The position numbers and the translations under genes are program-made. The notes beneath the pieces were generated by a model, which was given only the letters and a program-made list of their open reading frames with translations, had not been told where the DNA came from and made no database searches. A stretch of 64,000 bases of DNA from an uncultured archaeon (GTDB lineage Archaea; Asgardarchaeota; Thorarchaeia; Thorarchaeales; Thorarchaeaceae): NCBI GenBank assembly GCA_964558645.1, contig CAZLEV010000009.1, forward strand, positions 27,568-91,567, written 5' to 3'. Below are positions 12,872 to 49,967 of the stretch, piece by piece. How positions within the stretch are numbered: position 1 is the stretch's first letter; the number at the start of each line of letters is the position of its first letter.

Positions 12872-12884
12872 AATATTCTCCTCC

Positions 12885-33482: not shown

Positions 33483-34457
33483 ATGACAGAGAAGACATAC
33501 CGAGAAGCTCTCAGAGAGGGGCTTCGAGAAGAGATGACACGTGATGACACAGTCTTTCTGATGGGTGAGGACATTGGGAAGAACTGGGGCGGCGCGTTCA
33601 AAGTGACCAAGGGGCTTGCGGATGAATTCGGCGAGGAGCGGGTCCGCGACACTCCAATATCAGAAAACACGATAGCAGGTGCAGCGGTCGGTGCTGCCAT
33701 CACAGGCCTCCGTCCGGTGGCTGAGATCATGTTTGGAGACCTGATCACTCTGGCAATGGACCAGATATGCAATCAAGCGGCCAAGATGAGATACATGTTC
33801 GGTGGTCAGACATCTGTTCCGCTTGTACTCCGTACTGTCTTCGGGGGAGGTAAGAATATCGCATCGCACCACTCTCAGAGCCTACAGGCATGGTTCATGC
33901 ATACACCGGGCCTGAAGATCTGTGTACCTGCCTTCGCTAGTGATGTCAAAGGACTCATCAAGACAGCAATCAGAGACCCGGACCCGGTCATGTTCTTTGA
34001 ACACAAGCTTGTCTATGACAAGAAAGAAGACGTTCCGGATGATGAGTATACGATCCCCTTGGGAGAGGCGAGGATTCATCGCGAGGGTGCAGATGTAACA
34101 GTCTGGGCAACCTTCATGATGGCTCACAAAGCAATCGAAGTTGCAGATGCGCTGAACAAGGAGGGTATCAGTGTAGAGGTCATAGATCCAAGAACACTTG
34201 TACCTCTGGACAAGAAGACATTGATTGACTCGGTTAAGAAGACAGGTAGGCTTGTGTTGGTGACAGAAGAAACTAGGACAGGAGCAACAACAGCTGAGGT
34301 TTCGGCTCTGGTCCAGGAAGAAGCATTTGATTGGCTCGATTCGCCCATCCAGAGAGTTAATGCCCCCGATACCCCTGTTCCATTTAGCCCGAGTCTGGAG
34401 AACTTTTTCATTCCAGATGAGAAGAGTATCGAGAAAGCGATACGGTCAATTTTCTAG
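33483..34457 (+). CDS. 2-oxoacid/acetoin dehydrogenase E1 beta
   Basis: MGEDIG, DTPISE, GLRPVAEIMF, HHSQ, EHK, IDPRTLVPLD. Confidence 0.93.
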   Translation: MTEKTYREALREGLREEMTRDDTVFLMGEDIGKNWGGAFKVTKGLADEFGEERVRDTPISENTIAGAAVGAAITGLRPVAEIMFGDLITLAMDQICNQAAKMRYMFGGQTSVPLVLRTVFGGGKNIASHHSQSLQAWFMHTPGLKICVPAFASDVKGLIKTAIRDPDPVMFFEHKLVYDKKEDVPDDEYTIPLGEARIHREGADVTVWATFMMAHKAIEVADALNKEGISVEVIDPRTLVPLDKKTLIDSVKKTGRLVLVTEETRTGATTAEVSALVQEEAFDWLDSPIQRVNAPDTPVPFSPSLENFFIPDEKSIEKAIRSIF

Positions 34458-35956
34458 TGGCTCTGCAGAGTGAAGAAAACAGTTGTTCCAATACCCTCTT
34501 CGCTCTCAAACCATATCTCGCCCCCGTGAGCCTCGATTACCTTCTTGGCGGTGACCAGTCCTATGCCTGCACCCTCGAAGTCAGCTGCATTATGTAGTCG
34601 CTGAAATGGTTCAAAGAGGCCGTCAGCGTCTTCAGTATCAAAACCTATACCGTTGTCGCGAATGAAGAAGACCTCCGAGCCATTCTGTCTTATCACACCG
34701 AACTCAATCAGAGCGGATTCGCTCTTCTGGGTGTATTTCCATGCATTCCCAATGAGATTTGAGAGGAGAATGTGTATTAGGTCCGGATCTGCAGCTGCAT
34801 GCATTCCCTCTTCAATATCGACGGATACTTCTCTGTCAGGGCTCTGCACGGTCAAGTCCTGAATGACTTCATGCGCCATTTGCGATACATCAACCTCTTG
34901 CAGAGTGGCCGTGCGAACAGAGAGGGAAGCCAGTCTCAGAAGAGCCTCCACCAGCTGATCGACCTGATCCACACGTTCCACCATCTCCTCGATGTACTCC
35001 TCACATACCTCACTATCAGCCTTCACGCATGTGGTGCCAATCAGCTCGGCATAGCTGCGTATCACCTGTAGCGGGCTCTTGATATCGTGTGATAGTGATG
35101 CCGCGAATGCCTCAAGATCGCGATTCACCTGTTCTAGCTGTTTGACGCGGGCCTGTTCTCGTTGGACACTGACCTCCAGGTTTCGAAAGAGGCTATCGTA
35201 AGGCTTCTGAAGGCTGTTTCTGACCATTCCAACATAAAGCAGGCTGAACGAAAGCAGCTTAAGATAGTGACCGACCCAGTTCATCACGCCATACACATCG
35301 ATATACAGAGTGAAAGCGAGCTCGGAGCCCTGAGTGAGAATGATTGACAGTATCAATAATCTCCAGAGTGTAGGTTCGAACATCTCACGTTTCTGACCGT
35401 AGGCAAGAACAGCGATACAGAGGATCCCTACCACTACATATTCACTGACAATCTTGAAGAGTGTAAGGCCAACGCCCTCAATGTAACAGTCCGGGAAGAA
35501 ACCCGCGAATATCAGGACGTGAAGAACCACAGTGATCACGGCATAGCATATGAACACAGTCTGCTTGTTCGTCTTGCGTTGCACAAATCCAATGGCAACC
35601 AGAATCGAGACACTCTCAAGGTAGCGGGCGGCTATCCAAAGCTGAGTTGGTAGATTCGAGTCATACCCCGGAAAGATGCCCATTCCGCTGTAGGCAAAAG
35701 TGTGAGTGAGGTCTAACATCGCCACAAAGAGATATGCCACGCCCAAGACGAGGAAGAAACTGTATTCCGTGAATCGTTCGGTGTTCCAAGCCACTGCGAA
35801 GACCCCGAAGGCTACCAGAATCGCTGAGCACTCTACAATGACATGGAAGAGCAGGTAGCTGTACAGGCTGATTATGTAGAGCATGATACCTACCAGGGCT
35901 GCAAGAACTAAAGACCCAACGAGCCGGAGTTGGCTATGGTTCTTCATGCTCCTCAT
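34454..35956 (-). CDS. Membrane sensor histidine kinase (MASE3, HisKA, HATPase)
   Basis: YLLFH..E, D..HT.AY.GMG.F, QLWIAARY, SELAFTLY (MASE3); SHDIKSPL, NLIGNAWKY, DNGIGF, GAGIGL. Confidence 0.92.
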   Translation of the reverse strand: MRSMKNHSQLRLVGSLVLAALVGIMLYIISLYSYLLFHVIVECSAILVAFGVFAVAWNTERFTEYSFFLVLGVAYLFVAMLDLTHTFAYSGMGIFPGYDSNLPTQLWIAARYLESVSILVAIGFVQRKTNKQTVFICYAVITVVLHVLIFAGFFPDCYIEGVGLTLFKIVSEYVVVGILCIAVLAYGQKREMFEPTLWRLLILSIILTQGSELAFTLYIDVYGVMNWVGHYLKLLSFSLLYVGMVRNSLQKPYDSLFRNLEVSVQREQARVKQLEQVNRDLEAFAASLSHDIKSPLQVIRSYAELIGTTCVKADSEVCEEYIEEMVERVDQVDQLVEALLRLASLSVRTATLQEVDVSQMAHEVIQDLTVQSPDREVSVDIEEGMHAAADPDLIHILLSNLIGNAWKYTQKSESALIEFGVIRQNGSEVFFIRDNGIGFDTEDADGLFEPFQRLHNAADFEGAGIGLVTAKKVIEAHGGEIWFESEEGIGTTVFFTLQSH

Positions 35957-36148
35957 CCTTTGTTCCGCTCCCTTGGCAGTAGCGCGATATCTCGTTCACA
36001 GCCATCACCGGGATATAAGGCCTCTCGTGAGATGGAAATAGGATTGCAAAAACACAACAGTATCGTTAAATAGTTGGACCTGTCCTGAGCGAATACACTG
36101 CCCCTCAGGAATCTCAGCCCTACTAGGCTTGCTCTCGGAGGTTATCAA

Positions 36149-37372
36149 ATGGTCACAACGATGATTATGCAGAGAATGAGCGTTGCTATGGAATACGGCG
36201 TCATCCTCAAATGGCTGAAGAAGGAGGGCGAGAAGGTTGAGAAGGGTGACCCAGTGGTAGAAATCTTCGGGGAGAAGAACGAGTTCGAGCTGGAGGCACC
36301 CGAGAACGGGTTTCTGTTGAAGATTCTGTGTGATGTGGACGATGAGATACCCATTAGTGAACCAATCGCAATCATAGGCAAAAAGGGTGAAACAATTCCG
36401 GATGTCAAGCCAAAGAAGCTCAACGAAGAACAACCCTCCCCGACGGTGCCAGTGAGAGAGTCTGAAGAGAGCACTCCCGTCACGAAAACATCGAGTAGGT
36501 CCACCACCGCTACACCCCTTCCCGGGGGGCGCATTAAGGCATCACCTCGTGCCAAGAAGAAGGCCCGCGAACTGGGAGTAGATGTCTCTCTTGTCACTGG
36601 CACTGGCCCTGACGGGCGAACTGTGGAAGAAGATGTCATTCGTTTCGAGGAAACGTCTGCAGCAGCGTTAACTGATGAACGAGAAGTAAAGATGACTGAA
36701 GCTATGACTCCACTACGGCGTACCATAGCACGACGGATGACCGAGAGTTCGCACAACCCGCACATTACCATGATCACAGAGATTGACATGACCGAGGTTG
36801 TGTCGCTTCGGAGGGAGATTAACCAGCGGGTTGAGAAGACCCTCGGAATCAGAGTTTCATTCAATGATATCATTGTGAAGGCAGTTGCCGACACTCTGGA
36901 GAAGTTTCCCAAGTTTAACGCAACTCTCGTTGGAAACCAGATACGCATGTTTGCAGATATCAACATAGGAGTTGCTATGGCCACCGATGATGGCCTCATT
37001 GTTCCCGTTGTGAAGTCTGCAAATGTCAAGTCAATATCTGAGATTGCTCAGGAAACAAAGACCCTTGTTAAAAGAACGCACAACAATTCGCTTGAACCAA
37101 CTGACCTCCAAGGTGGCACATTCACTGTCTCCAATCTGGGTCCTTTCGAGGTCGACCTTTTCATTCCTGTGATAAACCCGCCAGAGACCGCAATCCTGGC
37201 TCTTGGTGCCATAAAGAAGAAACCTGTGGTCGTAGAGGACATGATTGCCATCAGACACACCATGATGGCAAGCTGTGCGGTTGATCACCGAGTCCTTGAC
37301 GGTGCTCCAGCAGGAGCGTTCTTGGCTGCTCTGAAAGACACCCTAGAGAACCCCTATTTCATGAAGATCTAG
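36149..37372 (+). CDS. Dihydrolipoamide acyltransferase E2
   Basis: Lipoyl domain (FGEKN), E1/E3-binding ASPRAKKKA..GTGPDGR, GGTFTVSNLG, DHRVLDG. Confidence 0.92.
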   Translation: MVTTMIMQRMSVAMEYGVILKWLKKEGEKVEKGDPVVEIFGEKNEFELEAPENGFLLKILCDVDDEIPISEPIAIIGKKGETIPDVKPKKLNEEQPSPTVPVRESEESTPVTKTSSRSTTATPLPGGRIKASPRAKKKARELGVDVSLVTGTGPDGRTVEEDVIRFEETSAAALTDEREVKMTEAMTPLRRTIARRMTESSHNPHITMITEIDMTEVVSLRREINQRVEKTLGIRVSFNDIIVKAVADTLEKFPKFNATLVGNQIRMFADINIGVAMATDDGLIVPVVKSANVKSISEIAQETKTLVKRTHNNSLEPTDLQGGTFTVSNLGPFEVDLFIPVINPPETAILALGAIKKKPVVVEDMIAIRHTMMASCAVDHRVLDGAPAGAFLAALKDTLENPYFMKI

Positions 37373-37409
37373 TAGAAGACATGATGGGCAGCGGCCAGTA
37401 GTAAATCAG

Positions 37410-37688
37410 CTATCCATACCGGAACTTCACACCAAAGGTGCCACGCGGGTAGTTCCAGTCCACGGCTCCGTATGGGCAGATGACTCTGCAGGTACCACAC
37501 TCAACACAATCTTCGTACTGGAATTGCATCTCGTCATCCTCATACTTGAAGCAGTTAGCGGGACAACCGACAATACAGGGCCGGTGCTTGCATTCTTCGC
37601 AAATCTCCTTTGAGATCAGGATGTGCGGATGTTCCGAATCAATCTTGTAACGCAGCAATCCCAGTTTGTCTTCAATGCGCTTCGTCAT
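37410..37688 (-). CDS. fixX: FixX-type ferredoxin
   Basis: HPHI, CPANCF, CVECGTCRVICP, WNYPRGTFGVKFRYG. Confidence 0.88.
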   Translation of the reverse strand: MTKRIEDKLGLLRYKIDSEHPHILISKEICEECKHRPCIVGCPANCFKYEDDEMQFQYEDCVECGTCRVICPYGAVDWNYPRGTFGVKFRYG

Positions 37689-38980
37689 AGGCCACGAATC
37701 AACTCCAGACCGTCTATTATCAAATGAGGAAGAGGTATGTCTGACAGGAACTTAATCATCGCGCGAGGCACGAGTCTCTGGCGGGGTACGAGGTCAGATG
37801 TGAAGGAGTCTCTGGCTAGACCCATTATCACTGAAGGATAGTCAGAATAGAGCCGGGGATTCCCGAACACAGCGGTCAGATGCTTATACGTGCTGAAGTC
37901 CTTCAGAATGAAGTTCCTCCGAAGGATTCGGTCATATTCACGGAGCGAGTCCTTTGAGAAGTCATTCTTCTTGTGCGCCTTGAGAATCGCCTTTGCAGCG
38001 GCCATACCTGAACCGATAGCGTAGTTCATCCCTTCAAACGAGAAGCCCAAGTTCAAGACTAAGCCTGCTGCGTCACCGACCACAATAATGCCATCATCAG
38101 AAAGATTCCGTATTGCACCATGGCCGCCCTCCGGAACAAGGTGAGCCGAATACTCCAGCAAGAGACCATCATGAATTGAACGGTTAACGATTGGTGTAGA
38201 CGTGAACTTGTTTATTATTTCTTTTGAATCGAGTTGGGCTCTTTGGAACCCAGTAAGGAGAACAACGACTCCTACTGACACAGATGCCCGGTTGGTGTAG
38301 AGGAATCCGCCCCCAGGAATACCACCTGTCACGCCCAAGAATGAGTGAGCAAGACCATCAGTACCAAAAAGTCCAAATCTCTCGTTTATGGTCTCCTCGG
38401 AGATACCAAATACCTCCTTAATGCCCAGAGCAACTTGGTGAGTCTCGGGCCTCTCTCTGAGACCAGCATCTTCAGCAACCAATGAGTTGACACCATCAGC
38501 GGCAATGACGACCTTAGATCGAACCACTTCGTCACCTGAGCGAATACCGACAACATGGCCGTTCTCTCTTACAACCCCGTCGACTCGAACACCCTCTACC
38601 AGCAGCGCACCTGCTTCCTCGGCCTTTGAGGCAAACCATCTGTCGAAGTCGGCTCGGAGAATTGAGAATCCATTGTAGGGTTCCTCAGCCAGAGAACCGT
38701 CGGTATAGTCTATCGTCAGGCTGGCCCCATTTTCAACCATGCTGACTCGGTGAGTCCGGATGATCCGTTCAATGGGTGCCTCCTCCCAGAATCGAGGAAT
38801 CAGTTTGTGGAGGATCCTGCCGAAAAGGACTCCGCCAGACACATTCTTATCGCCAGTCTTCTCCCCTCTTTCAATCAGGGTCACATCAAGTCCAGATTTC
38901 GCCAAGGCATATGCCGCGGCACACCCAGCAGGACCAGCACCAACAACAATCACATCAGGTTCATCAGCCAAGGAGATCAC
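37685..38980 (-). CDS. fixC: FixC-type FAD oxidoreductase (ETF-quinone oxidoreductase family)
   Basis: GAGPAG, ERG...G.KNVSGG, APIER, ADGVNS, GGGFLYTN, EYSAHLVPEGG, GDAAG. Confidence 0.88.
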   Translation of the reverse strand: MISLADEPDVIVVGAGPAGCAAAYALAKSGLDVTLIERGEKTGDKNVSGGVLFGRILHKLIPRFWEEAPIERIIRTHRVSMVENGASLTIDYTDGSLAEEPYNGFSILRADFDRWFASKAEEAGALLVEGVRVDGVVRENGHVVGIRSGDEVVRSKVVIAADGVNSLVAEDAGLRERPETHQVALGIKEVFGISEETINERFGLFGTDGLAHSFLGVTGGIPGGGFLYTNRASVSVGVVVLLTGFQRAQLDSKEIINKFTSTPIVNRSIHDGLLLEYSAHLVPEGGHGAIRNLSDDGIIVVGDAAGLVLNLGFSFEGMNYAIGSGMAAAKAILKAHKKNDFSKDSLREYDRILRRNFILKDFSTYKHLTAVFGNPRLYSDYPSVIMGLARDSFTSDLVPRQRLVPRAMIKFLSDIPLPHLIIDGLELIRGL

Positions 38981-39001
38981 TTCTTCATCGGATAGAGCAA
39001 C

Positions 39002-40504
39002 CTAGGCTCCATTGAGGTCCTCCTTGATGAGACCCGTCGTGATATCGGCGCTCATAATCACACTGGGGACACCTGCGCCAGGATGAGTTCCAGCGCCGAC
39101 CAGGTACAGTCCTTTGATGTCTCGAGAACGATTATGAGGTCTGAACCAACCTGACTGAAGGAGAATAGGACGAAGGCTGAAGCCCGTTCCCTTATACGCA
39201 TTGAATTCGGTCTTGTAGTCCTCTGGCGTGAAGATGCTCACAACATCCAGATTATCAAGAAGACCTGGCAAGACACGACTGTCAAGCGTATCGAGGATAT
39301 GATCCTTGAATTCTTCCTTCTTGTCATCCCAGTTGGTTTTTGAGTCCAAGTTGGTCACAGGTGTACAAGCGTACATGGCTTCGCATCCGGGAGGTGCAAG
39401 CTCAGGGTCTGTACGTGTGGGAATGTGAAGGTATGTTGAGAAATCATCCGGTATCACGTGGCGTTTGAAGATATCTTTGATGAGACCCTTGTAGCGGGGT
39501 CCGAAGACGATGCTATGATGTGTCATGTCGGGATACTGCTTCTTAACTCCGAAATAAAGCATGAATAGACTCATGCTGTACTTCGCCCTTCTGTATCGCC
39601 TGTCACTGTTCTTCTTCCGATGCTTACTGCTGATAAGATCCATGTAGGTGTGAGCGACATCAGCGTTTGATATCACAACGTCTGCACCATAATACTCGCC
39701 ATCTGCGGTCTCAACACCCCTGACTCGCTTACTCTCGGTGACATCAATCGAACGCACTTCAGAGTTCAGCTTGACGGTTCCACCCAGCTCTTCAAACAGC
39801 ATAGTCATGGCCTCTACAAGCTTGTGAGTGCCTCCGCGAACCCACCAAACGCCGTGTTTCTCCTCTATGTAGGTAATCAGGGTGTAGATTGCAGTTGCTT
39901 CGAATGGGTCGCCCCCTATGAAAAGAGGATTGAAAGAGAGAGCCATCCTGAGACGGGGATCCTTCACGTGACTCGCTACGAAGCCATAGACAGACTTGTA
40001 TGCCTTGTGTCGTATGCCGGCGGGTGCGACTTTCACCATGCTCAGCAGACTGTCAAAGGCCATGGAGCCAAACTTCTCAAATCCCAGTTCATAGATCGGC
40101 TTGGCCTTCTCGAGGAACTCCTTGTAACCCTCTACATCCTTCGGGTTGAAGTTGTGAACCTGCTCAATGTTGTCTTCATAGCCAGAGTAGTCCATCTGGG
40201 TCCCGTCGCTGAAATACAGACGATACTTCGGGTCGACACGCATCAGCTCCACATAGTCGGAGGTTTCCCGACCTGCTGCGTGGAATAGGTCATCAATCAG
40301 AAACGGCGGAGTGATGATAGTAGGCCCCGTGTCGAAGGTATACCCCGCCTTTCTGAATACACTTGCCCTACCACCAAGCTGACTGCGCTTTTCAAGTAGA
40401 GTCACCGGATAGCCTGTAGCTTGCATCCGAATAGCAGCCGACAGCCCCCCGAGACCTCCACCTATTACAACCACATCTTTGTCTTTTTTGTCAACGCTGG
40501 TCAA
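39002..40504 (-). CDS. crtI: Phytoene desaturase
   Basis: GGGLGGL, GYTFDTGPT, FIGGDPF, SNAD, LQSGWFRPHN, VGAGTHPGAGVP. Confidence 0.9.
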   Translation of the reverse strand: MTSVDKKDKDVVVIGGGLGGLSAAIRMQATGYPVTLLEKRSQLGGRASVFRKAGYTFDTGPTIITPPFLIDDLFHAAGRETSDYVELMRVDPKYRLYFSDGTQMDYSGYEDNIEQVHNFNPKDVEGYKEFLEKAKPIYELGFEKFGSMAFDSLLSMVKVAPAGIRHKAYKSVYGFVASHVKDPRLRMALSFNPLFIGGDPFEATAIYTLITYIEEKHGVWWVRGGTHKLVEAMTMLFEELGGTVKLNSEVRSIDVTESKRVRGVETADGEYYGADVVISNADVAHTYMDLISSKHRKKNSDRRYRRAKYSMSLFMLYFGVKKQYPDMTHHSIVFGPRYKGLIKDIFKRHVIPDDFSTYLHIPTRTDPELAPPGCEAMYACTPVTNLDSKTNWDDKKEEFKDHILDTLDSRVLPGLLDNLDVVSIFTPEDYKTEFNAYKGTGFSLRPILLQSGWFRPHNRSRDIKGLYLVGAGTHPGAGVPSVIMSADITTGLIKEDLNGA

Positions 40505-40547
40505 TCGCTCTCCTCCTTTAGATCACACCACAACTATGACATACGGC

Positions 40548-41507
40548 TTACTGGACTTCAAGCAGTTCATGCTCCTTCTTCTCCCTCATGTACTCCCGTC
40601 GGCATCTGAAAGCAATCAGGAGCTTCTTCCACTTGGGAACAACTGCCCGCTTCTTGAAGACATCATAGTCCATACTCTCAATCTCGTCCATGATTGCCGC
40701 ATACACGCTGCTGGCCACTCTCACCGTAAATGCACCTGCAGGCGGCAAGTCATCTGTCCCCACCTCTGCACGGGCGTAGATCTGCTTTGCACGGGCAATC
40801 TCGGACTTAATCATGCGTTTGAAGTTGGGACTGGCAATCTTGTTCTCGAAATCCGAACGGCTAATCCTGAACCGTTCTCGAACATCATGAGGTATGTAGA
40901 TTCTACCGTTCTCAAAATCCTCTTCGATATCTCTTAGGATGTTTGTCAGTTGAAGGGCAATTCCAAGATCCGCAGCCCTATCGAGAGTCTGTTCTTCGGT
41001 TCTGCCCCATATATGACACATCATAATCCCCACTGTCGATGCGACATGGTAGCAGTAGTCGTAGAGCTCATCTTCGTCCTTTACGTCACGTATTGAGAGG
41101 TCCATCCGTACTCCTTCAATCAGCTCATGAAGGTACTTGAGCGGGATCTTGTACTTGACCATGGTGTCACCAAAGGCTCGGAACAATGGATGTTTGAATA
41201 CCTCGCCTCGGGACAACCGGACTGCTATCTCTTTGAGGATATCCAGCTCTTTGTCAACCTGCTCTCGGGACATGTCGGTCTCATCAGCAAAATCATCCGC
41301 GAGTCGACAAAACCCATAAAGTGCCGCAAACGCTCTACGCTCAGGCTCGTCCAAATACCGCGATGCAAAATGAAAGGATCGTGCATGAAGCTTGAAGACG
41401 TTCATGCAGTAGTCATAGCTCTCCTCCAAGTCAAGAGGCTCGCTGCTTCGAGTCTCGAATACCTCTGAGGGTAGTACCGCCATGTGGGCGGTGTAATCAC
41501 TTGGCAT
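40548..41507 (-). CDS. crtB: Phytoene synthase
   Basis: SFHFAS, LYGFCRLADDFAD, YCYHVASTVG, LGIALQLTNILRDIEED, GRIYIP. Confidence 0.92.
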   Translation of the reverse strand: MPSDYTAHMAVLPSEVFETRSSEPLDLEESYDYCMNVFKLHARSFHFASRYLDEPERRAFAALYGFCRLADDFADETDMSREQVDKELDILKEIAVRLSRGEVFKHPLFRAFGDTMVKYKIPLKYLHELIEGVRMDLSIRDVKDEDELYDYCYHVASTVGIMMCHIWGRTEEQTLDRAADLGIALQLTNILRDIEEDFENGRIYIPHDVRERFRISRSDFENKIASPNFKRMIKSEIARAKQIYARAEVGTDDLPPAGAFTVRVASSVYAAIMDEIESMDYDVFKKRAVVPKWKKLLIAFRCRREYMREKKEHELLEVQ

Positions 41508-41775
41508 CTCTTATGCACACACCTCTCTCATCTACTCGCACAGAAGTCATAGCAGATTCTTTCTAAAGAACCTTCGTCATGTCCTTCACACAACCTCTTC
41601 TGCGGATTGTAGTTTTTTGCAAATGTACATTATTAAACTGTTAGTTCGTGCCCTTCAGATATTGTCGATTTCCGGTGACAGTTTTGCCGTTTCTCCGGAA
41701 TCTAAGCATGTTCTGAGTAATCGTTATTAGAAGACTGAAGCATTACGACATCCGCTCAGGGAGGCAAATGTCAGG
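41508..41775. promoter_or_regulatory. Divergent promoter region between crtB and crtD
   Basis: AT-rich 268-bp gap with palindrome AATGTACATT (41622-41631) and TATA-like tracts. Confidence 0.45.
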
Positions 41776-43242
41776 ATGAAGGTCATAATAGTTGGCGCGG
41801 GGATTGGAGGTCTCTCACTTGCAGCACTTCTAGGCAAGAGAGGACACGATGTCACAGTCATTGAGAAGAATGAACAGCCCGGAGGGCGAGCAAGAGTATG
41901 GGAGAAGGACGGTTTTGTCTTCGATATGGGGCCTTCGTGGTATCTGATGCCTGAGATATTTGATCACTACTTCGAGCATTTCGGGAAGAAGACCCAGGAC
42001 TTCTACGAGTTGATACGCCTGAACCCATCATATAGGATATTCTTCCCAGAGTCCACCCTTGACATCTCAGCAGACCTCCAGGAGAACATGGACCTCTTCG
42101 AGAGATTGGAGGAGAACGGGGCGGAAAAACTCAGGAAGTATTTGGACCAAGCTCAAGAGAAGTATGAATACTTGCTCGATGGGCTGATGTACGAGGATCT
42201 CTCGGGAATAACAGCAATGCTTAATCCCAAGTTGATGGCAGCTGGATGGAAGCTCAGTATCCTGTCAAATATCGATAAACTCACGAAGAAGTATTTCGAT
42301 AGTGAGCGTGCGAGAAAAATCCTGCAGTATTCCATCGTCTTCTTGGGTGGAAATCCAAAGAACACCCCAGCACTCTATTCGATGATCTCACACATCGACT
42401 TTAACCTGGGTGTGTGGTACCCCTACGGAGGCTTAGGCAAGATTGTAGATGCAACACTGGGTCTTGCGAAGCAGTTTGGAGTTGAGTTTCGATTTGGAGA
42501 AGAAGTCACGGATGTCGTTATCGAGGACAAGATTGCCAAGCGAGTCATCACAGACAAGGGAGAGTACGAGGGTGATGTGGTGGTATCAAATGCAGACTAT
42601 CCCCACACGGAAATTGACTTGATTGATGAAGACTACGAAACATATTCTGAAGATTACTGGGAGAGCAAGACCATTGCTCCCTCTGCCTTTGTGTTGTATC
42701 TCGGGCTTGACAAGAAGATTGATGCTCTCACCCATCACAATGTCATCTTGGATCATGATTGGGTGAAGCATTTTGAACAGATCTTCGAGAACCCCTCTTG
42801 GCCCGATGAGCCCGCCTACTATCTGTGCTGTCCATCTAGAAAGGATGACACCGTAGCCCCAGAGGGCAAAGAGAACATCTTCGTCACCATTCCTATTTCA
42901 CCGGGAATCGAAGACACCCCTTCGATTCGCGAACGCTACTTCGACAAGATTGTTTCTCATATGGAGAAGGTTCTGAGGACGGATATCAAGGACCATATCA
43001 TTGTCAAACGAATCTTCTCTCTCAACGACTTCGCTGAAGACTACAATGCATACAAGGGTACTGCAGTAGGGTTGACACATTCATTCAGACAGTCTGCATT
43101 CTTCAGACCAAGACACAAGAGCAAGAAGGTTAAGAATCTCTATTATAGCGGTCAATATACACACCCAGGCATAGGGGTTCCCATGGTGCTCATATCCGCA
43201 GAAATCGTCGCAGACCTCATCGACGAAGACTATGCAGAATGA
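41776..43242 (+). CDS. crtD: Second CrtI-family desaturase, probably carotenoid 3,4-desaturase
   Basis: GAGIGGL, FDMGPSWYLMP, FLGG.P..TPALY, GQYTHPGIGVPM. Position upstream of lyeJ-cruF matches haloarchaeal crtD. Confidence 0.8.
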   Translation: MKVIIVGAGIGGLSLAALLGKRGHDVTVIEKNEQPGGRARVWEKDGFVFDMGPSWYLMPEIFDHYFEHFGKKTQDFYELIRLNPSYRIFFPESTLDISADLQENMDLFERLEENGAEKLRKYLDQAQEKYEYLLDGLMYEDLSGITAMLNPKLMAAGWKLSILSNIDKLTKKYFDSERARKILQYSIVFLGGNPKNTPALYSMISHIDFNLGVWYPYGGLGKIVDATLGLAKQFGVEFRFGEEVTDVVIEDKIAKRVITDKGEYEGDVVVSNADYPHTEIDLIDEDYETYSEDYWESKTIAPSAFVLYLGLDKKIDALTHHNVILDHDWVKHFEQIFENPSWPDEPAYYLCCPSRKDDTVAPEGKENIFVTIPISPGIEDTPSIRERYFDKIVSHMEKVLRTDIKDHIIVKRIFSLNDFAEDYNAYKGTAVGLTHSFRQSAFFRPRHKSKKVKNLYYSGQYTHPGIGVPMVLISAEIVADLIDEDYAE

Positions 43243-43273
43243 TTGCAGCAGAAAGGATTGGTGACTAGACAGG

Positions 43274-44167
43274 ATGACAAGTCTATTGCACCTTGCATAC
43301 AGGGTATCCAGAGTGAGATTCTGGTTATATCTCGGGGGCCCATACTTGGTTGGATACATGATTGGAGTGGCTAATACGTACCTCCAGCCCGAACCATCTT
43401 TCTTAGTGCTATACGAATTTGCTGATCCGTTCTTTGTGTTACATCTTATCTACTTCATACTCCCCGCAAACATCTTTCTCTACGGAGTCAATGATATCTC
43501 CGATAAGGACACAGATGCGTTCAATCCCAAGAAGGACGACAAGGAATACCGCGCTGTCAGACAGGACGAGAGGAAGCTCTATGGACTTGTCTTCGTTTCG
43601 TTTCTCTATGGAGCAGTTCTCGTCGCATTCCAACCCACAATGGTCGCCCGATTCATCTTCCTTTCATGGATGGCCCTTTCATTCTTGTACAGTGCACCAC
43701 CACTGAGATTGAAGGCGAAACCAGCACTTGACTTCTTGAGCAATATGCTCTATGTACTTCCTGCCATCTTGGCATTTCACCACTTGACGTTTGATATTCC
43801 ACCGATCCTGCCGCTGCTCGCCGCATTCTCGTGGGCTTGGGCGATGCATCTGTTCTCTGCGATTCCTGACATCGAGGCAGACAGAAAGGCGGGCATCCAA
43901 ACGACAGCAGTAGTTCTTGGAAGGAGGCTGTCACTCTTGCTCTGTTTCATCTTCTGGACATTCTTTGCAGGAACTCTGATCTTCATCGTGCAGTGGAATC
44001 TTCCTTTCAGCCTTCTGGCACTTGTGTATCCAGCCATTCCGATGTATGTTCTTGCAAGACCAGAAACTGATATCGAGAGAGTATACTGGTACTATCCATA
44101 CTTCACGGGGTTGTTTGGAATGGTGATCTTCTTCAGCATTGGCCTTCCCTTGGTGATACCACTATGA
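43274..44167 (+). CDS. lyeJ: Lycopene elongase/hydratase (UbiA family)
   Basis: SR.RFWLYL.G, YGVND..D.DTD..NPKK, YSAPPLRLK, AMHLFSAIPDIEADR.AGI.T. Confidence 0.85.
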   Translation: MTSLLHLAYRVSRVRFWLYLGGPYLVGYMIGVANTYLQPEPSFLVLYEFADPFFVLHLIYFILPANIFLYGVNDISDKDTDAFNPKKDDKEYRAVRQDERKLYGLVFVSFLYGAVLVAFQPTMVARFIFLSWMALSFLYSAPPLRLKAKPALDFLSNMLYVLPAILAFHHLTFDIPPILPLLAAFSWAWAMHLFSAIPDIEADRKAGIQTTAVVLGRRLSLLLCFIFWTFFAGTLIFIVQWNLPFSLLALVYPAIPMYVLARPETDIERVYWYYPYFTGLFGMVIFFSIGLPLVIPL

Positions 44168-45000
44168 GCAGATTCAAGGAGGCCTTAGTCACAGGAAGAT
44201 TCGCTAAGAGGAATATCTTCTTGCTCGTCTTCTCTCTGGCATTCTTCTTGGCAAGCTGGCTCGTCGCCAACGTTAGCATCGGGGAAGCAGTGAACTGGGT
44301 ATCAGCGCTATTCATTGTGACTATTGCATTGCCATCCTACTACTACCTCATTAGATGGGCGGGAGTAAGTAAAGGGGTCACGGTGATAGTTGTTCTGGGA
44401 GCACTTCCCGTCCTCATCGAGGCCATAGGTATCACCACGGGACTGCCCTACGGAGGCTTCTACTACACAGATATGATGGGATTCAAGATTTTCAATCTCG
44501 TGCCGTGGAGCGTCGCCTTTGCATTTGGGCCGCTGGTACTAGGGACATTGTGTCTTGCAGTAGTGGCCTCGAAAGACTGGCGAGTCGTCATCCCACTCAG
44601 CGCACTGCTTCTTGTGTTCGTTGACCTTGTCCTTGATCCCGCGGCGGTTGTGCTCAACATCTGGGTGTGGACTGAGCCAGGACCATACTACGGGATACCA
44701 ATTACCAACTATACAGGATGGTTCATCACAGCTCTAGTTGCATCAGCAGTTCTACAGCTGATTCTGACAGGCACTTCAAAGAATGCAGCGGAGATTCCTG
44801 TTGAGATTGCGGGTAGCCTTCTTATCAGCTTGTCATTTTGGGCGGGGTACTCGCTATGGACGGGTCTCTGGATCCCAGTGCTAGTGGGCGCATTGATGAT
44901 AGGGGGGATACTCTATATTATCATGGTTCAAGATGTGGAGTTCGTCCCGTTAAGTGAAGTACAGAAGCCCTCTAAGCTGCGACCAAATCGTAACGACTAA
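44164..45000 (+). CDS. cruF: Carotenoid hydratase (bisanhydrobacterioruberin hydratase type)
   Basis: E.IG..TGLPYG.F.Y, D..LDP.AV....W.W, YYGIP..NY.GW. Confidence 0.85.
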   Translation: MSRFKEALVTGRFAKRNIFLLVFSLAFFLASWLVANVSIGEAVNWVSALFIVTIALPSYYYLIRWAGVSKGVTVIVVLGALPVLIEAIGITTGLPYGGFYYTDMMGFKIFNLVPWSVAFAFGPLVLGTLCLAVVASKDWRVVIPLSALLLVFVDLVLDPAAVVLNIWVWTEPGPYYGIPITNYTGWFITALVASAVLQLILTGTSKNAAEIPVEIAGSLLISLSFWAGYSLWTGLWIPVLVGALMIGGILYIIMVQDVEFVPLSEVQKPSKLRPNRND

Positions 45001-45046
45001 TAGCAGATTAGTTGAACGAATCGAAACTGGAAATGGAGAGAATCAT

Positions 45047-46072
45047 ATGTCGAAACAGTCCCCTCCAGCATCCGCTGAGAACGAACCTGAACAGAGCTCG
45101 ATGCAGCTGCTGCTCCAGAATGGGATCATTGAAGAGCGGATGCGTATGATTGATGAGTTCATTGAGGGATACTTGGAGGATAATGTCGGTGAACCCGAAG
45201 TCCTGTATGAGGCGGCATACCATCTGATACGGGCGGGAGGTAAGAGAATGAGGTCACTGATCATGGTTCTGGCATGTGAGTCGGTTGGAGGTAGGACCTT
45301 AGATGCCTTACCTCTTGCACTGGCTGCTGAACTCCTTCAAACTGCCAGTCTAATCCACGATGATATCATCGATGAAGACTCATTCCGTAGAGGCGTCAAG
45401 ACCGTACATGATGTGTTCGGAGTGAAGATGGCAATCCTTGCTGGAGACCTCCTCATCTCTCAGGCAGTGAGACTGCTAGGCAAGTATGGAAGTTCGAATC
45501 TCCTCGAGCATATGGGAGAGGGTGGAGGCAAGATGTGTGAAGGGGAGGCAACAGACCTTCTCATGAATCCACACCACGAAGAGGCCTATAACGAAGAAAC
45601 GTACCTCCGGATGATTGAGAGAAAGACTGTGGCATTTGTTGAGGAAGCAGCCAGAACAGGAGTTCTTGTCGGAGGAGGTAGTGATGAACAGATGCAGTTG
45701 CTCCTCGAATATGCTCGGTCACTTGGTTTTGCGTTTCAGATACGAGATGATATACTGGACTTGGAGGAGAACCTGACATTCTCGGGAAAGACGCACCATT
45801 CAGACCTCAGGCTACAACGGGGCAATTACGTGGTATTGTCAGCCTTGAGTATGCTTGATAACAAGGGAAGAAGAAGACTACTTGATTCCTTGCTGAACCG
45901 AGAAACCGAAGTCATTCTGGAGATGCTGAGAAAGACCCACGCAGTTCACAGAGCCCGAAGAAAAGCACAAGAATACGTGCAGCAAGCGAAGCGAGCCCTT
46001 CGCGATAGTAGTCTTGGAAATACTGATGCGCTCCTCAACATAGCCGATTTTGTTCTTGATCGCTTCCACTAG
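45047..46072 (+). CDS. Polyprenyl diphosphate synthase
   Basis: GGKRMR, ASLIHDDIID..RRG, AILAGD, KT, FQIRDDILD. Confidence 0.9.
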   Translation: MSKQSPPASAENEPEQSSMQLLLQNGIIEERMRMIDEFIEGYLEDNVGEPEVLYEAAYHLIRAGGKRMRSLIMVLACESVGGRTLDALPLALAAELLQTASLIHDDIIDEDSFRRGVKTVHDVFGVKMAILAGDLLISQAVRLLGKYGSSNLLEHMGEGGGKMCEGEATDLLMNPHHEEAYNEETYLRMIERKTVAFVEEAARTGVLVGGGSDEQMQLLLEYARSLGFAFQIRDDILDLEENLTFSGKTHHSDLRLQRGNYVVLSALSMLDNKGRRRLLDSLLNRETEVILEMLRKTHAVHRARRKAQEYVQQAKRALRDSSLGNTDALLNIADFVLDRFH

Positions 46073-46090
46073 AACTGCGCCGGAGTTAGC

Positions 46091-47161
46091 ATGATGGAAT
46101 CGCCCATTTCGGACACCAACGAAGAAGACCCGAAGAATACATCCAGGATTAAGAGCTATCTACAACTCATCAGACCACCCTTTCTCGTTGCAACTTCTCT
46201 CTCCATGATTCTCGGGACGACCATAGCCTGGGTAAGGACGGGGTCATATGACCCCTTGCTCTTTGCCATGACCATCACTGCAGGAGTACTGATTCATGCG
46301 GGGACAAACGCAAGCAATGACTACTTTGATCACCTGAGTGGAAATGATGATGTAAATCAGGACTTTGTGGCACCATATACCGGAGGGAGTCGGATGATTC
46401 AGCTTGGCAGGGTCAGCCCCTATGAGGTCCTAGCACTCTCGTTGTCTTTGCTCGCCGGGGCAATCTTCCTTGGCGCGATTCTGGCATCACTGAAGGGATA
46501 CTTCATCCTGATTCTCGGGGCGATCGGGGTCTTCTCTGGGTTCTGCTATGCGGCTCCACCTATTCGTCTAGCCAGCAGAGGCATTGGCGAACCGTTGGTT
46601 GGATTGAACTTCGGAGTTCTCCTCGTTCTCGGCGCTTACTACATTCAGACCGATTCGGTTGCCATCGAACCAATACTCGCATCCATACCCATCGCAACAA
46701 CGATAACGGCCGTCTTATGGATCAACGAATTCCCTGATTTTGCGGCAGACAAAGCTGCGGGAAAAGATACCCTCGTTGTCAGGCTTGGAACGAAGAGAGC
46801 AAGCCGTGCTTACATCATCCTAGTCTTTGCCGCCTATCTGTTGACGGTTCTCGCCATTCTTGGTAACGCAATAGCGCTCACCGCACTCCTAGCACTTTCC
46901 ACATCACCTCTTGGAATCGTAGCCGTCTACACTGCCAAGAAGTTCCATGACAGTCCGTCTAGACTGGCCCCCTCCTGTAGTGCAACTGTTGTCATGCACC
47001 TGCTTTTCGTGACTTCTCTTATCATCGGCTATCTTCTGCTTGGACTTAGTTGTGATTGGCTTGCTTTTGTCATATGCTTTGTCATCATGACTGCAACGTC
47101 TCTATTGATAGTGCTGTGGATGCGCCGACGGGCAACCATGACGCAACCAAGTGGTGCTTAA
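46091..47161 (+). CDS. menA: 1,4-dihydroxy-2-naphthoate polyprenyltransferase
   Basis: NASNDYFDHLSGND, GGSR, Y..PP.RL..RGIGE, NEFPD..AD..AGKDTLVVRLG. Confidence 0.85.
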   Translation: MMESPISDTNEEDPKNTSRIKSYLQLIRPPFLVATSLSMILGTTIAWVRTGSYDPLLFAMTITAGVLIHAGTNASNDYFDHLSGNDDVNQDFVAPYTGGSRMIQLGRVSPYEVLALSLSLLAGAIFLGAILASLKGYFILILGAIGVFSGFCYAAPPIRLASRGIGEPLVGLNFGVLLVLGAYYIQTDSVAIEPILASIPIATTITAVLWINEFPDFAADKAAGKDTLVVRLGTKRASRAYIILVFAAYLLTVLAILGNAIALTALLALSTSPLGIVAVYTAKKFHDSPSRLAPSCSATVVMHLLFVTSLIIGYLLLGLSCDWLAFVICFVIMTATSLLIVLWMRRRATMTQPSGA

Positions 47162-47386
47162 ATCGAGGGCTTCTAACAAGGGATTGATACTGGCTCACAG
47201 TATCACGCCTCGAAATCAGAACGTCTGCTCAGCCGGTAGCAACCTCTCTGCTGCCGGCACCTTTTCAAAAAGCTGAAATACTTCTCTCAGTGGGCATTCA
47301 CAGTAGTCTGCATATCAGAAGAAGTATGATAAGATATTCAACCCTATCATCAATTGGTTTCGCGGGTTCAAGGAACGGTGGATTAA

Positions 47387-48184
47387 GTGTCATGGCGTCT
47401 TCTTGACGAGGACAGTACGGATGTATACTGGAATCTTGCTCTAGAGGAGGCCATAGCCAAAACCAATGCTGAACGAAAGTGTAAGACTAACACGCTCAGA
47501 TTCTGGCGATCCAAAGACGCCGTAGTTATGGGAAGATTGCAGTGCCTGCACAGAGAGGTTAACATTGCGTACTGCCAGCGAAACAACATAGACATGGCAC
47601 GAAGGTTTACTGGCGGAGGCACCGTCTTCCATGACCTTGGAAATCTGAATTTCGCAATCTGTGTGGATCAAAGGAAACCCTATGCGTTCAAGACCCTCCG
47701 GGAGCTCTATTGGAACTACATAGGGTTCATCGCACAGGGCCTTCGTGCAATCGGCATCAATGCAGCGTACGACGAGAGAGGGGCTTGCATAAGAGTCGCA
47801 GGATCCAAGATAACTGGGACTGCAGGCTGGGTCAAGCATGGAGTTTCATTCATCCATGGAACTCTTCTCATCGAGTCCGACCTGGATCGACTGCGAAAAT
47901 CACTCAGGGTTCTCCCAGACCAGCCGAAGTACTTCAGAGACAGAAGGAGAGTCCGATGCACGGAAAGCAAGAGAGACAGAGTCACTAGTATTGCACGTGC
48001 CGTCAGCGACAGACCTTCCGATGGTGTAATCAAGAGGGCAATAATCACAAGCATCGAGTCTCTAACGAACTGTAGAGTAGAACCGGGAATTGTGACTGAC
48101 AAGGAGCTAGAGACTGCAGAGGTTTTATATCGGCAGCGGTACAGTCAGCCGGAATGGAACATGGGCTATCCAGCCGATGAATAG
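47387..48184 (+). CDS. lplA: Lipoate-protein ligase A family
   Basis: NLALEEA, RRFTGGGTVFHDLGNLNF, KITG, HGTLL. Confidence 0.88.
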   Translation: MSWRLLDEDSTDVYWNLALEEAIAKTNAERKCKTNTLRFWRSKDAVVMGRLQCLHREVNIAYCQRNNIDMARRFTGGGTVFHDLGNLNFAICVDQRKPYAFKTLRELYWNYIGFIAQGLRAIGINAAYDERGACIRVAGSKITGTAGWVKHGVSFIHGTLLIESDLDRLRKSLRVLPDQPKYFRDRRRVRCTESKRDRVTSIARAVSDRPSDGVIKRAIITSIESLTNCRVEPGIVTDKELETAEVLYRQRYSQPEWNMGYPADE

Positions 48185-48187
48185 AGT

Positions 48188-48562
48188 ATGGATACGGAGC
48201 CTTGCCGCACAATGACTGAAGACATTGAGAAGACTCTCAGGAGTTTCATGAAGCACTTTGGTGCCCTGAACAGAGACATCCCCGACACACGCAACGCCTT
48301 TAGTGATCTTCTGAAAACGGTTCATCGCGATGGCGCACTGACTGCGAAGGTCAAAGAGATCATGTGCATAGTGGCATCGATTCTTGCGCCCTGTGAATCT
48401 TGCATGGTCTATCACACAAAGAAGGCTCTTGATGCAGGAGCCTCCAGGGAAGAGATAATGGAGGGCTGTGCGGTAGCCATAGTCATGGGCGGGGGACCAG
48501 CTGCGGCCCACATTGCTACAGTCCAAGATGCTCTCGATGAGTGGGCACCACGGAAGAAATAG
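48188..48562 (+). CDS. Carboxymuconolactone decarboxylase/AhpD family protein
   Basis: DGAL..K.KE, CESCMVYH, A..AGASREEI.E, MGGGP. Confidence 0.88.
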   Translation: MDTEPCRTMTEDIEKTLRSFMKHFGALNRDIPDTRNAFSDLLKTVHRDGALTAKVKEIMCIVASILAPCESCMVYHTKKALDAGASREEIMEGCAVAIVMGGGPAAAHIATVQDALDEWAPRKK

Positions 48563-48570
48563 TCACAGAC

Positions 48571-49614
48571 CTAGTCCAAGTCTGTGAACAGCACTTTAAT
48601 CGCCTTCTGTGATTCCATCAGCTCGAAACCCTTCTCCCACTCGTCTAGGGAGACTCTATGAGTTATGAGGGGCTTTACATCGATGCGCTTCGAAGCCATC
48701 ATGCGGAGAGTTGTCACCCATGTAGAGGGGATAGTGCCCCATGTGCCGAGAACATGCAGTTCCTTTGTCACTATCAGATCCAAATCAAGAGTGATTGGTT
48801 TACCCTGAATGCCAATCAATGCAATCTGACCTGTTGTCTTGACAAAATCAAAGGCCTGCTTGCGGGCAGCTCCAGAGCCAGATGCCTCGACCACGACATC
48901 AGCACCGATGCCATCGGTGATCTCTTTCACTTTCTGTACAGCAGCAGTCTCCTTCTGAACATCTATTGTCATATCAGCGCCGACTTCTCTGGCGATCTCC
49001 ATTCTCCATTCGTCAGCGGTAATACCCGTTACTATCACTTGCGCTGCGCCCATGGCTTTGGAAACCTGTACAGCGACCAGACCAGTAGTTCCAGGACCCT
49101 GAACGACAACCACATCTCCCGGAGTGATCTTCGTGCATTCCGCGATGGTGTGAACAACACAAGCGGTTGGTTCTGCAAGTGCGGCCTCCTCCATCGAAAC
49201 TCCGTCAGGAATCTGGTGTACTATGTACTCTGGAACAACCAAGTACTTAGCAAAGGCGCCGTTGGCCAGTGAAACACCAAGAATCTGCTTATTCTCTGCA
49301 GTGCATCTGTTGACATGGCCCGTTCTGCATTGACAACACCTACCACAGTATGCAGTGGCGGGTGAAACGACTCTGTCACCCACAGCGAAACCACAGACAT
49401 CGGGGCCAACATCCACAATGGTACCGGAGTACTCATGGCCAAGCACAACGGGTGGTGTGTAAAAGGCAGTGTCATGTTTGATATGGACATCGGAGCCGCA
49501 TATGCCAGCCGCGGATACCTCGACCAGTACTTGCCCGGGACCAGGGACGGGTTCTTCAATGTCTACCAGTTCAAGACCGCCGGGTCCCTTCTTCGTCTTC
49601 ATGAGTCCTCTCAA
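48571..49614 (-). CDS. Zn-dependent medium-chain dehydrogenase (threonine/sorbitol DH-like)
   Basis: GICGSDVH, GHEYSG, CGRCCQC..C, GPG..G. Start TTG 49614 assumed. Confidence 0.9.
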   Translation of the reverse strand: MRGLMKTKKGPGGLELVDIEEPVPGPGQVLVEVSAAGICGSDVHIKHDTAFYTPPVVLGHEYSGTIVDVGPDVCGFAVGDRVVSPATAYCGRCCQCRTGHVNRCTAENKQILGVSLANGAFAKYLVVPEYIVHQIPDGVSMEEAALAEPTACVVHTIAECTKITPGDVVVVQGPGTTGLVAVQVSKAMGAAQVIVTGITADEWRMEIAREVGADMTIDVQKETAAVQKVKEITDGIGADVVVEASGSGAARKQAFDFVKTTGQIALIGIQGKPITLDLDLIVTKELHVLGTWGTIPSTWVTTLRMMASKRIDVKPLITHRVSLDEWEKGFELMESQKAIKVLFTDLD

Positions 49615-49679
49615 CAGTAAAGACCTCGGGTCTTGCTGGTTAGACCCGTTATAGAATGTTGTGGCGAGAGAACAAGACA

Positions 49680-49967
49680 CTAAGAAGTCTCGGCTGCGAT
49701 TGCTTTGAGGAATGAAGGGGGTTCAGAACCCTGATCAACAGGACGCACACGGAAGTCCATTCCTCGTTCTGCTCTGATGGAGGCCGCATTTCTTGCGCCC
49801 ACAAACTTCTTTCTCACGTCTGCATCCCGACCGTGCCAGAGAAAGACGTTCTTCCCAGGCTCATCAATGACGCAATACACTTTATCACTTTGAAGTCTTT
49901 CCGGCTTGAGATTCACTTCACGTGATGAACCGTCATCGAGCATTTCGTAGCCATGAACCATTGTCAT
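49680..49967 (-). CDS. Single-domain gelsolin-like protein (Asgard eukaryotic signature protein)
   Basis: LQSDKVYCVID..VFLWHG..A...KFVGAR.A..I...VDQGSEPPSF matches the gelsolin repeat consensus. Confidence 0.8.
   Translation of the reverse strand: MTMVHGYEMLDDGSSREVNLKPERLQSDKVYCVIDEPGKNVFLWHGRDADVRKKFVGARNAASIRAERGMDFRVRPVDQGSEPPSFLKAIAAETS

Follow-up and report, generated by a model that had tools for sequence, protein, structure and literature searches.

Can the C50 carotenoid bacterioruberin, treated as a hallmark of salt-loving archaea, have a counterpart in an anaerobic archaeon of sediments? The question is raised by a cluster of carotenoid genes in a 64,000-nucleotide stretch of contig CAZLEV010000009.1 (assembly GCA_964558645.1; the whole stretch is called the window here), which comes from an uncultured member of the Thorarchaeaceae within the Asgardarchaeota. 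The source genome (G000), a metagenome-assembled genome (MAG), is 92.8% complete with an estimated contamination of 6.28%. The cluster is the organism's own and is inherited within its family. We consider it probable that it encodes a functional bacterioruberin-type C50 carotenoid pathway serving the membrane of anaerobic Thorarchaeota, with a bacterioruberin-like acyclic hydroxylated C50 (possibly C45/C50) carotenoid as the most likely predicted product.

Five open frames occupy positions 39002-45000. As the initial annotation had described, crtI and crtB lie on the minus strand and diverge from crtD, lyeJ and cruF on the plus strand. The latter three are contiguous and co-oriented (41776-45000), with a 31-base gap between crtD and lyeJ and a 4-base overlap between the lyeJ stop and the cruF start. 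The operon runs past 45000 into a gene for a geranylgeranyl diphosphate (GGPP) synthase and then one for a MenA-like prenyltransferase. The core of the cluster reads as follows.

39002-40504, minus strand: CrtI-family phytoene desaturase (second desaturase, not CrtID-type); 500 amino acids; TIGR02734 (crtI_fam) 603.4 against a cut-off of 238.1; PF01593 match
40548-41507, minus strand: crtB, phytoene synthase-like SQS_PSY enzyme; 319 amino acids; PF00494 248 bits
41508-41775, no strand: divergent intergenic region; AT-rich TATA-like element ATTATTAAAC at 41629-41638
41776-43242, plus strand: CrtD/CrtID-type carotenoid 3,4-desaturase, probably also a phytoene desaturase; 488 amino acids; NF058655 684.3 against 640
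43274-44167, plus strand: LyeJ-type UbiA prenyltransferase, predicted lycopene elongase/1,2-hydratase; 297 amino acids; NF009516 288 against 205
44164-45000, plus strand: CruF-like carotenoid hydratase, a membrane protein; 278 amino acids; PF04240 147.2 against 25

LyeJ also exceeded its cut-off in a search of the whole genome (NF009516, 290.9 bits). Among the controls this model found matches in Haloferax, Corynebacterium and Deinococcus, and a single control genome of 14, presumably Haloferax, rose above the cut-off. For comparison we anchored the alignments on two haloarchaeal plasmid loci, from Halarchaeum sp. CBA1220 (L032) and Halocatena salina (L033), which are annotated as crtI-prenyltransferase-cruF with a phytoene synthase beside them. 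Window LyeJ is 37-42% identical to haloarchaeal LyeJ and retains both Asp-rich UbiA motifs, NDISDKDTD at residues 73-81 and DIEAD at residues 199-203, in register with those of Halarchaeum and Halocatena; we take the catalytic motifs of the family, from UbiA structures, to be an NxxxDxxxD-type motif and DxxxD. An alignment of Asgard, Bathyarchaeota, methanogen and haloarchaeal sequences has 56 invariant columns out of 324, which together with the two motifs bears out the earlier description of LyeJ as intact. The LyeJ of the window genus also carries an 11-residue insertion after the first predicted helix (residues ~35-45) that the other eight aligned sequences lack.

CruF was likewise said to be intact, and its conserved blocks do align with those of haloarchaeal CruF, to which it is 33-41% identical. 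A profile comparison with hhalign, setting 20 Asgard CruF-like sequences against eight of haloarchaeal type, gave a probability of 99.9% (E 5.6e-35, 198 columns), with the blocks E..G..TG.PYG.F.Y, D.VLDPAAV and G.YYG.P..N..GW common to both profiles.

Two further families act before these steps. A standard lycopene module consists of crtB and two CrtI-family desaturases, and all three are encoded here. The match of CrtD to the CrtID equivalog NF058655 spans profile positions 1-478 of 478, and the protein is 44-46% identical to the CrtI/D proteins that adjoin lyeJ in haloarchaea. The CrtI-family protein reaches only 356.7 against the NF058655 cut-off of 640, and only 55 bits with HpnE; it is 31% identical to haloarchaeal CrtI/D, and its orthologues in relatives are 72-95% identical and occupy the same position. 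CrtB, the product of the only SQS_PSY gene in the cluster, is 28-30% identical to haloarchaeal phytoene synthase. A c0507-type desaturase and a second desaturase have each been described as bifunctional CrtI/CrtD enzymes (PMC11946383).

These assignments suggest a route from isoprenoid precursor to pigment, of which we infer every chemical step, the C50 product and the pigment's role from sequence. The in-operon synthase would make GGPP, and CrtB would join two GGPP molecules into phytoene, which the CrtI-family desaturase, the CrtID-type desaturase or both would convert to lycopene. The LyeJ-type prenyltransferase would then add a C5 unit derived from dimethylallyl diphosphate (DMAPP) at C-2 and hydrate the 1,2 bond, CrtD would introduce the 3,4 double bond, and both steps would be repeated at the other end of the molecule; finally, CruF would hydrate the added isopentenyl groups. 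For the haloarchaeal bacterioruberin enzymes the primary paper is that of Yang (2015), cited in PMC9258230 and PMC9410494. In Haloarcula japonica, LyeJ is described as adding the C5 unit and hydrating, CrtD as introducing the 3,4 double bond and CruF as hydrating the added unit (PMC9410494, PMC9258230). The predicted pigment would most likely act as a membrane-reinforcing 'rivet', as a scavenger during transient exposure to oxidants, or as both.

Does the cluster belong to its host? A LyeJ search of 41 related genomes gave strong matches (E < 1e-60) in 11, the source genome included, and the loci of 10 were cut out for comparison. The five-gene core crtI-crtB<>crtD-lyeJ-cruF is complete in eight of the 10 relatives' loci; a contig end cuts crtI in G024, and the loci of G002 and G015 stop at contig ends. 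In five relatives (G001, G003, G009, G014 and G018) the core has the same neighbours as in the window, 2-oxoacid dehydrogenase E1/E2 upstream and LplA and an alcohol dehydrogenase (ADH) downstream. The cluster proteins are 83-97% identical in the two same-genus MAGs, G001 and G002, and homologues sit on Thorarchaeota contigs of 0.4-3.2 Mb (up to 3.16 Mb). The same-genus relatives and most homologues (55-93% identity) are named Candidatus Thorarchaeota, the others Hermodarchaeota, Hodarchaeota, Sifarchaeia or Promethearchaeota; with the conserved synteny, these names support the Asgard host that had been proposed.

The five genes are also under purifying selection, since their dN/dS ratios against G001 (crtI 0.084, crtB 0.093, crtD 0.043, lyeJ 0.097, cruF 0.172; a range of 0.04-0.17) resemble those of the housekeeping neighbours (E2 0.126, LplA 0.108). 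GC content is flat across the window, at 0.47-0.52. Near-identical DNA, with at least half of the sampled words present, was found in three sediment metagenome runs from three studies, two of them marine (one maybe the source) and one freshwater. In the best of these runs the stretches 31000-40479, 41800-44318 and 44446-49717 are each spanned by one contig, with even coverage, and contigs of this independent assembly link Fwd-E1-E2-FixC-crtI and cruF-GGPP synthase-MenA-LplA-ADH. Mis-binning or chimerism, a risk raised by the initial annotation, is contradicted by the synteny in relatives, the flat GC and the bridging contigs, and is thereby ruled out as far as it can be tested. Between the divergent arms, the element ATTATTAAAC occurs once within the window, and its core TTATTAAA is kept in seven of eight aligned sequences (the window and seven relatives), the remaining spacer being 45% identical on average; we regard it as a putative promoter.

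Some relatives carry additions to the core. An aldehyde:ferredoxin oxidoreductase gene is inserted between lyeJ and cruF in G003, G009 and G018; in G003 (L012:11029-14110), and likewise in loci L013 and L015, it is accompanied by two small ThiS/MoaD-like genes, so that the trio is split by ~3.2 kb.

Where, then, does the cluster come from? A phylogeny to identify a donor had been called for, and we built a quick maximum-likelihood tree of LyeJ with 69 rows, for which we took 62 of the 120 listed homologues (those with names, one in four of P0001-P0064 and odd-numbered entries of P0065-P0120), with two haloarchaeal non-carotenoid paralogues as outgroup and only two haloarchaeal LyeJ sequences included. 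The Asgard sequences are monophyletic (29 rows; Shimodaira-Hasegawa-like approximate likelihood ratio test (SH-aLRT) 99) and stand beside a clade of Bathyarchaeota and Methanomicrobiales (25 rows, 98). Outside these two clades, long branches lead first to a sequence of the candidate phyla radiation (CPR) and then to the two haloarchaeal LyeJ. The haloarchaeal rows have a deviant composition as well as long branches, so the order in which the major clades branch should be taken as provisional. Because haloarchaeal sampling is thin and the method quick, we claim only that Asgard LyeJ is not nested among the sampled haloarchaeal sequences and is nearer to those of anaerobic archaea. A match on an Arthrobacter plasmid was uninformative (a 403-amino-acid frame on a branch of length 6.38).

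The closest non-Asgard LyeJ homologues are from Methanoculleus, Methanocalculus, Methanomicrobiaceae and Bathyarchaeota (44-50% identity), those of Methanoculleus taiwanensis and Methanocalculus alkaliphilus being 45-49% identical. Each protein of the trio has its nearer homologues in Methanomicrobiales-like and other anaerobic archaea (41-55%) and resembles the two haloarchaeal anchors less (33-46%). A haloarchaeal loan is thus not supported, and we reject a recent haloarchaeal donor on the tree, with its two haloarchaeal LyeJ, and on the identities to haloarchaeal proteins (28-46%). The description of crtD-lyeJ-cruF as the haloarchaeal trio stands in part: gene identities and order match haloarchaeal loci, but the trio is not specific to haloarchaea and the window proteins are nearer to those of anaerobic archaea.

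What might such a pigment do in this host? FwdA (TIGR03121, 646.7 against 392.75) and FwdB (TIGR03129, 530 against 327.8) are encoded at 28922-31962 on the minus strand, both above their cut-offs, so the organism does encode Fwd, as had been stated. Searches for the terminal oxidase families COX1 (PF00115) and Cyt_bd_oxida_I (PF01654) gave no match in the 92.8%-complete genome, and each matched nine of 14 control genomes; their absence from an incomplete MAG is no proof. With Fwd present and neither COX1 nor cytochrome bd found, the suggestion of a probable anaerobe is plausible.

The absence of cyclase, blh and opsin genes, noted earlier for the window, holds for the whole genome at this completeness. 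No CrtYcd-type Lycopene_cyc domain and no photolyase was found, both searches having positive controls, and none was found of bacteriorhodopsin-type proteins (Bac_rhodopsin), heliorhodopsin or the Brp/Blh dioxygenase (BCD), for which the searches matched none of the 14 controls and so had no positive control. A role in retinal synthesis or light capture is unsupported, and the light or salt stress suggested earlier likewise finds no support in the genome: neither photolyase nor rhodopsin was found, and the metagenomes that contain the DNA are from marine and freshwater sediments. Since no retinal branch, rhodopsin, photolyase or terminal oxidase was found, a membrane role is the most likely one, rather than light capture. 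Elsewhere, in the family-f12 relative G035 (L018:1564-3006, 11185-13126), the cluster is flanked by a DNA photolyase gene 2.3 kb away, an additional UbiA prenyltransferase and a protein of DoxD/DoxX-like type; this photolyase is the sole hint of light exposure among the loci seen.

How widely is the trio carried in Asgard archaea? The LyeJ-type model scored above its cut-off in 31 of 400 Asgard genomes. At E <= 1e-30, and leaving out the source genome, matches fell in 17 of 85 genomes of its own family, 17 of 19 in family f12, two of 12 in f14, one of five in f32 and none of 135 in f9, the largest family. CruF of the trio type (E < ~1e-36) is encoded in 28 Asgard genomes, 25 of which also have a LyeJ-family match, and 23 of the 31 LyeJ-positive genomes carry it. 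Stop codons interrupt a few copies, a single in-frame TGA in each of two Thorarchaeota LyeJ homologues and three stops in a CruF homologue (G341:C1:595843-596688, G344:C16:4526-5377, G141:C64:7156-7719), possibly through decay, sequencing error or recoding.

Several findings weigh against a C50 pathway at work in an anaerobe, and some of them would fit a carotenoid of another size. According to this alternative, which we regard as unlikely, the LyeJ-like and CruF-like enzymes would tailor C40 (or C30) carotenoids or go no further than C45, with rhodopin-like or other acyclic xanthophylls as products. CruF falls below both CruF equivalog cut-offs, those of bacterioruberin hydratase (TIGR03460, 122.5 against 154.7; NF041333, 93.8 against 300), and the wider CruF family includes C-1',2' hydratases acting on C40 carotenoids, whose model GCarotHydoxCruF also matches the window protein at 67.8 bits. 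CrtB has no equivalog-level assignment: it scores below every NCBIfam equivalog cut-off, with HpnD as the best partial match (227.6 against 278.6) and the CrtB models at 160-185 against 480-550 (cyanobacterial CrtB 184.7 against 550, CrtB 160.4 against 480). LyeJ of Asgard archaea forms a clade apart from the haloarchaeal enzymes, separated from them by long branches and holding no characterised member, and several f12 genomes carry LyeJ with no PF04240 match. Yet window LyeJ passes the curated NF009516 cut-off, which the C50 elongase of Corynebacterium and the Deinococcus match do not all pass (one of 14 controls above it); the complete trio is kept in haloarchaeal order; and the in-operon GGPP synthase favours a C40 backbone.

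Other findings would fit a cluster that makes no pigment at all, its enzymes modifying isoprenoids other than carotenoids, for instance polyprenols or the side chains of archaeal ether lipids; we judge this very unlikely. Proteins of the PF04240 family are encoded in 132 of the 400 Asgard genomes, among them 51 of the 135 in family f9, which lacks LyeJ. Five of six loci of weaker PF04240 paralogues in LyeJ-less genomes have no crt neighbours (e.g. L037 G021:C3, L038 G012:C42, L039 G265:C43, L041 G344:C26); none of the six adjoins crtB or lyeJ, and one adjoins a distant CrtI-like gene. Being mostly found without LyeJ, and at five of six loci without crt neighbours, the family is not exclusive to carotenoid synthesis, and these widespread paralogues may be candidate hydratases of other isoprenoid lipids. 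Many anaerobic archaea have CrtID-like proteins that are 53-57% identical (named Korarchaeota, Methanofastidiosum, Methanomassiliicoccales and also WOR-3). A phytoene-desaturase homologue reportedly makes hydroxyarchaeol in Methanosarcina (Mori 2015), as PMC9128505 also mentions. Against a non-carotenoid role, a gene of the phytoene/squalene synthase family is always adjacent, beside crtI in Asgard loci and beside lyeJ in 40 of the 40 methanogen-type loci with at least 900 bases upstream, and two CrtI-family desaturases with crtB make up the standard lycopene module.

That the cluster is foreign, whether by mis-binning, chimeric assembly or very recent transfer from a haloarchaeon, is hardly credible: the 6.28% contamination estimate and the first description of the trio in haloarchaea speak for it, but the housekeeping flanks shared with at least five other family genomes, the same-genus MAGs at 83-97% protein identity, the 0.4-3.2 Mb Thorarchaeota contigs, the flat GC, the evenly covered bridging contigs, the mere 28-46% identity to haloarchaeal proteins and the monophyly of Asgard LyeJ all speak against it.

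For the C50 pathway that we favour, one further difficulty concerns electrons. CRTI-type desaturases are reported to require oxygen or quinones (PMC3382138). Neither oxidases nor the quinone enzymes MqnA, MenD and MenB were found in the genome; none of these three exceeded its cut-off, so no naphthoquinone head-group pathway was found by these searches, and other quinone routes were not searched. In an anaerobe the desaturases might be re-oxidised by a quinone-like carrier that is either scavenged or novel, or the pigment might be made in micro-oxic episodes. Genes next to the core bear on this point.

37410-37688, minus strand: FixX-like ferredoxin; FixX NF011993 78.9 bits
37685-38980, minus strand: FixC-like flavoprotein; FixC models 377 bits, below cut-offs; ETF-QO ubiquinone-binding domain PF21162
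44954-46072, plus strand: short-chain (GGPP-type) polyprenyl diphosphate synthase; PF00348 196 bits
46091-47161, plus strand: MenA-like UbiA prenyltransferase; TIGR00751 (menA) 106.5 against 102.15

The FixC/FixX pair lies directly downstream of crtI and may be a redox partner of the desaturases. It adjoins crtI also in G001 and, at L018:3749-5316, in the distant G035, of another family, and is not beside crtI in G003, G009, G014 and G018, which represent four other genera of the window family; the alpha and beta subunits of the electron-transfer flavoprotein (ETF) are encoded elsewhere in the genome. The MenA-like gene, whose product falls below the cut-offs of other MenA models, is co-oriented behind the GGPP synthase gene in the window genus only (present in G001 and G002). 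Together, the neighbouring FixCX pair and MenA-like gene hint at a quinone-type acceptor, a hypothesis drawn from gene context. In the loci compared, those of 10 relatives, the GGPP synthase gene follows cruF in G000, G001 and G002 alone. Its frame overlaps cruF by 47 bases, so its start codon is uncertain, and its best models, IdsA and GGPP synthase, score below their cut-offs.

Further out, a 2-oxoacid dehydrogenase complex (E1 alpha, E1 beta and a lipoyl-domain E2) and a lipoate-protein ligase flank the cluster (32412-37372 and 47387-48184) in this genome with no detectable oxidases, and a MASE3 histidine kinase gene (34454-35956, minus strand) sits between E1 beta and E2. Two full-length genes for the methylmalonyl-CoA mutase large subunit lie 13 kb apart at 4632-6302 and 19596-21311 (PF01642, 786 and 752 bits), with a pair of GlcD-like and CCG-domain genes between them at 16156-19126.

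How much of this is new? Lycopene synthesis has been reconstructed for Heimdallarchaeia (PMC11193907), and putative lyeJ and crtD genes with crtB and crtI are reported from the heimdallarchaeon Ca. Kariarchaeum pelagium, in a description that calls their functions unknown (PMC12137139). The lyeJ-crtD-cruF set has been published for Patescibacteria (PMC9948471) and the bacterioruberin pathway for Hikarchaeia (PMC13753752). In a comparative study CruF appears as a family specific to Halobacteria (PMC9258230), and carotenoids of methanogens are described as unstudied in a review of 2022 (PMC9410494). Public annotations of Thorarchaeota proteins read 'carotenoid biosynthesis protein', 'phytoene desaturase' and, once, 'Carotenoid 3,4-desaturase'. 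Our literature search, which did not cover supplementary tables, turned up no description of the pathway from either Thorarchaeota or methanogens. Because the pathway was known and has in part been published from outside the haloarchaea, what is added here concerns distribution and context, not mechanism.

If an intact, inherited pathway does operate in anaerobic Asgard archaea, the pigment would have a role in the membrane or as an antioxidant, unrelated to light and salt, CrtI-type desaturases would need an oxygen-free mode of working, and eukaryotes' archaeal relatives may have rigid membrane-spanning polyenes in their membranes. A broader proposal, which we put forward tentatively and hold to be possible but doubtful, is that C50 synthesis is an old trait of strictly anaerobic archaea (Thorarchaeota, other Asgard lineages, Bathyarchaeota and Methanomicrobiales, including the cultured Methanoculleus and Methanocalculus) that proceeds free of oxygen. 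The haloarchaeal pathway would then derive from a methanogen-like ancestor, the desaturases would work on an anoxic acceptor, in the window genus possibly a FixCX-linked quinone-like carrier made by the MenA-like enzyme, and C50 pigments in sediments and rocks would not be halophile-specific biomarkers.

Set beside known systems, the window cluster shares individual enzymes with some and the whole module with others. CrtEb of Corynebacterium glutamicum, which serves decaprenoxanthin synthesis, is, like LyeJ, a C5 lycopene elongase of the UbiA family, and NF009516 finds matches in Corynebacterium. The CrtEb route leads to cyclic C50 carotenoids through CrtYe/f, whereas the window genome has no match to the Lycopene_cyc domain. 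The same module as in the window is described for CPR/Patescibacteria of Lake Baikal, bacteria with tiny genomes in which the lyeJ, crtD and cruF genes are often unlinked (PMC9948471); a Doudnabacteria LyeJ is 42% identical to that of the window and branches outside the archaeal anaerobe clades. Hikarchaeia likewise are reported to have the module, as crtB-crtI-lyeJ-cruF, in hosts that are aerobic pelagic relatives of haloarchaea (PMC13753752). 'Ca. Kariarchaeum pelagium' belongs to the same phylum as the window host and likewise has crtB and crtI with crtD and a putative lyeJ beside them, to which a putative glycosyltransferase is added; unlike the window host it is a pelagic, rhodopsin-bearing heimdallarchaeon, and the description of its genes makes no mention of cruF (PMC12137139).

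The haloarchaeal bacterioruberin module (Haloarcula japonica, Halobacterium salinarum) has the same three families in the same order, crtD-lyeJ-cruF, with a phytoene synthase and a CrtI-family desaturase nearby. The window differs in that crtI-crtB is divergent and that, in its genus, a GGPP synthase gene, a MenA-like gene and FixCX are attached; its host, in turn, is a non-halophilic sediment Asgard archaeon in which no oxidases, rhodopsins, cyclase or Blh were detected. The nearest clusters outside Asgard are those of Methanomicrobiales-like archaea, Bathyarchaeota and other anaerobes, which comprise the same families (LyeJ 40-51%, CrtD 46-55% and CruF 30-46% identical to the window proteins) but encode just one desaturase and are ordered differently, as cruF-crtD-crtB-lyeJ or crtD-crtB-lyeJ-cruF. 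When metagenome contigs were scanned with the Methanoculleus taiwanensis protein, 55 loci were recovered, 54 of them with a LyeJ match (L045-L098). A CrtD homologue was present in all 27 methanogen-type loci with at least 2500 bases upstream, and a CruF homologue in 10 of the 19 with both flanks. Loci 79-83% identical to the M. taiwanensis LyeJ homologue form a single block, cruF-crtD-crtB-lyeJ (e.g. L045:4950-8810), and one lies on a 2.04-Mb contig. Close relatives of the window cluster occur in methanogens that can be cultivated in the laboratory, where the idea of C50 carotenoid synthesis by anaerobes is testable.

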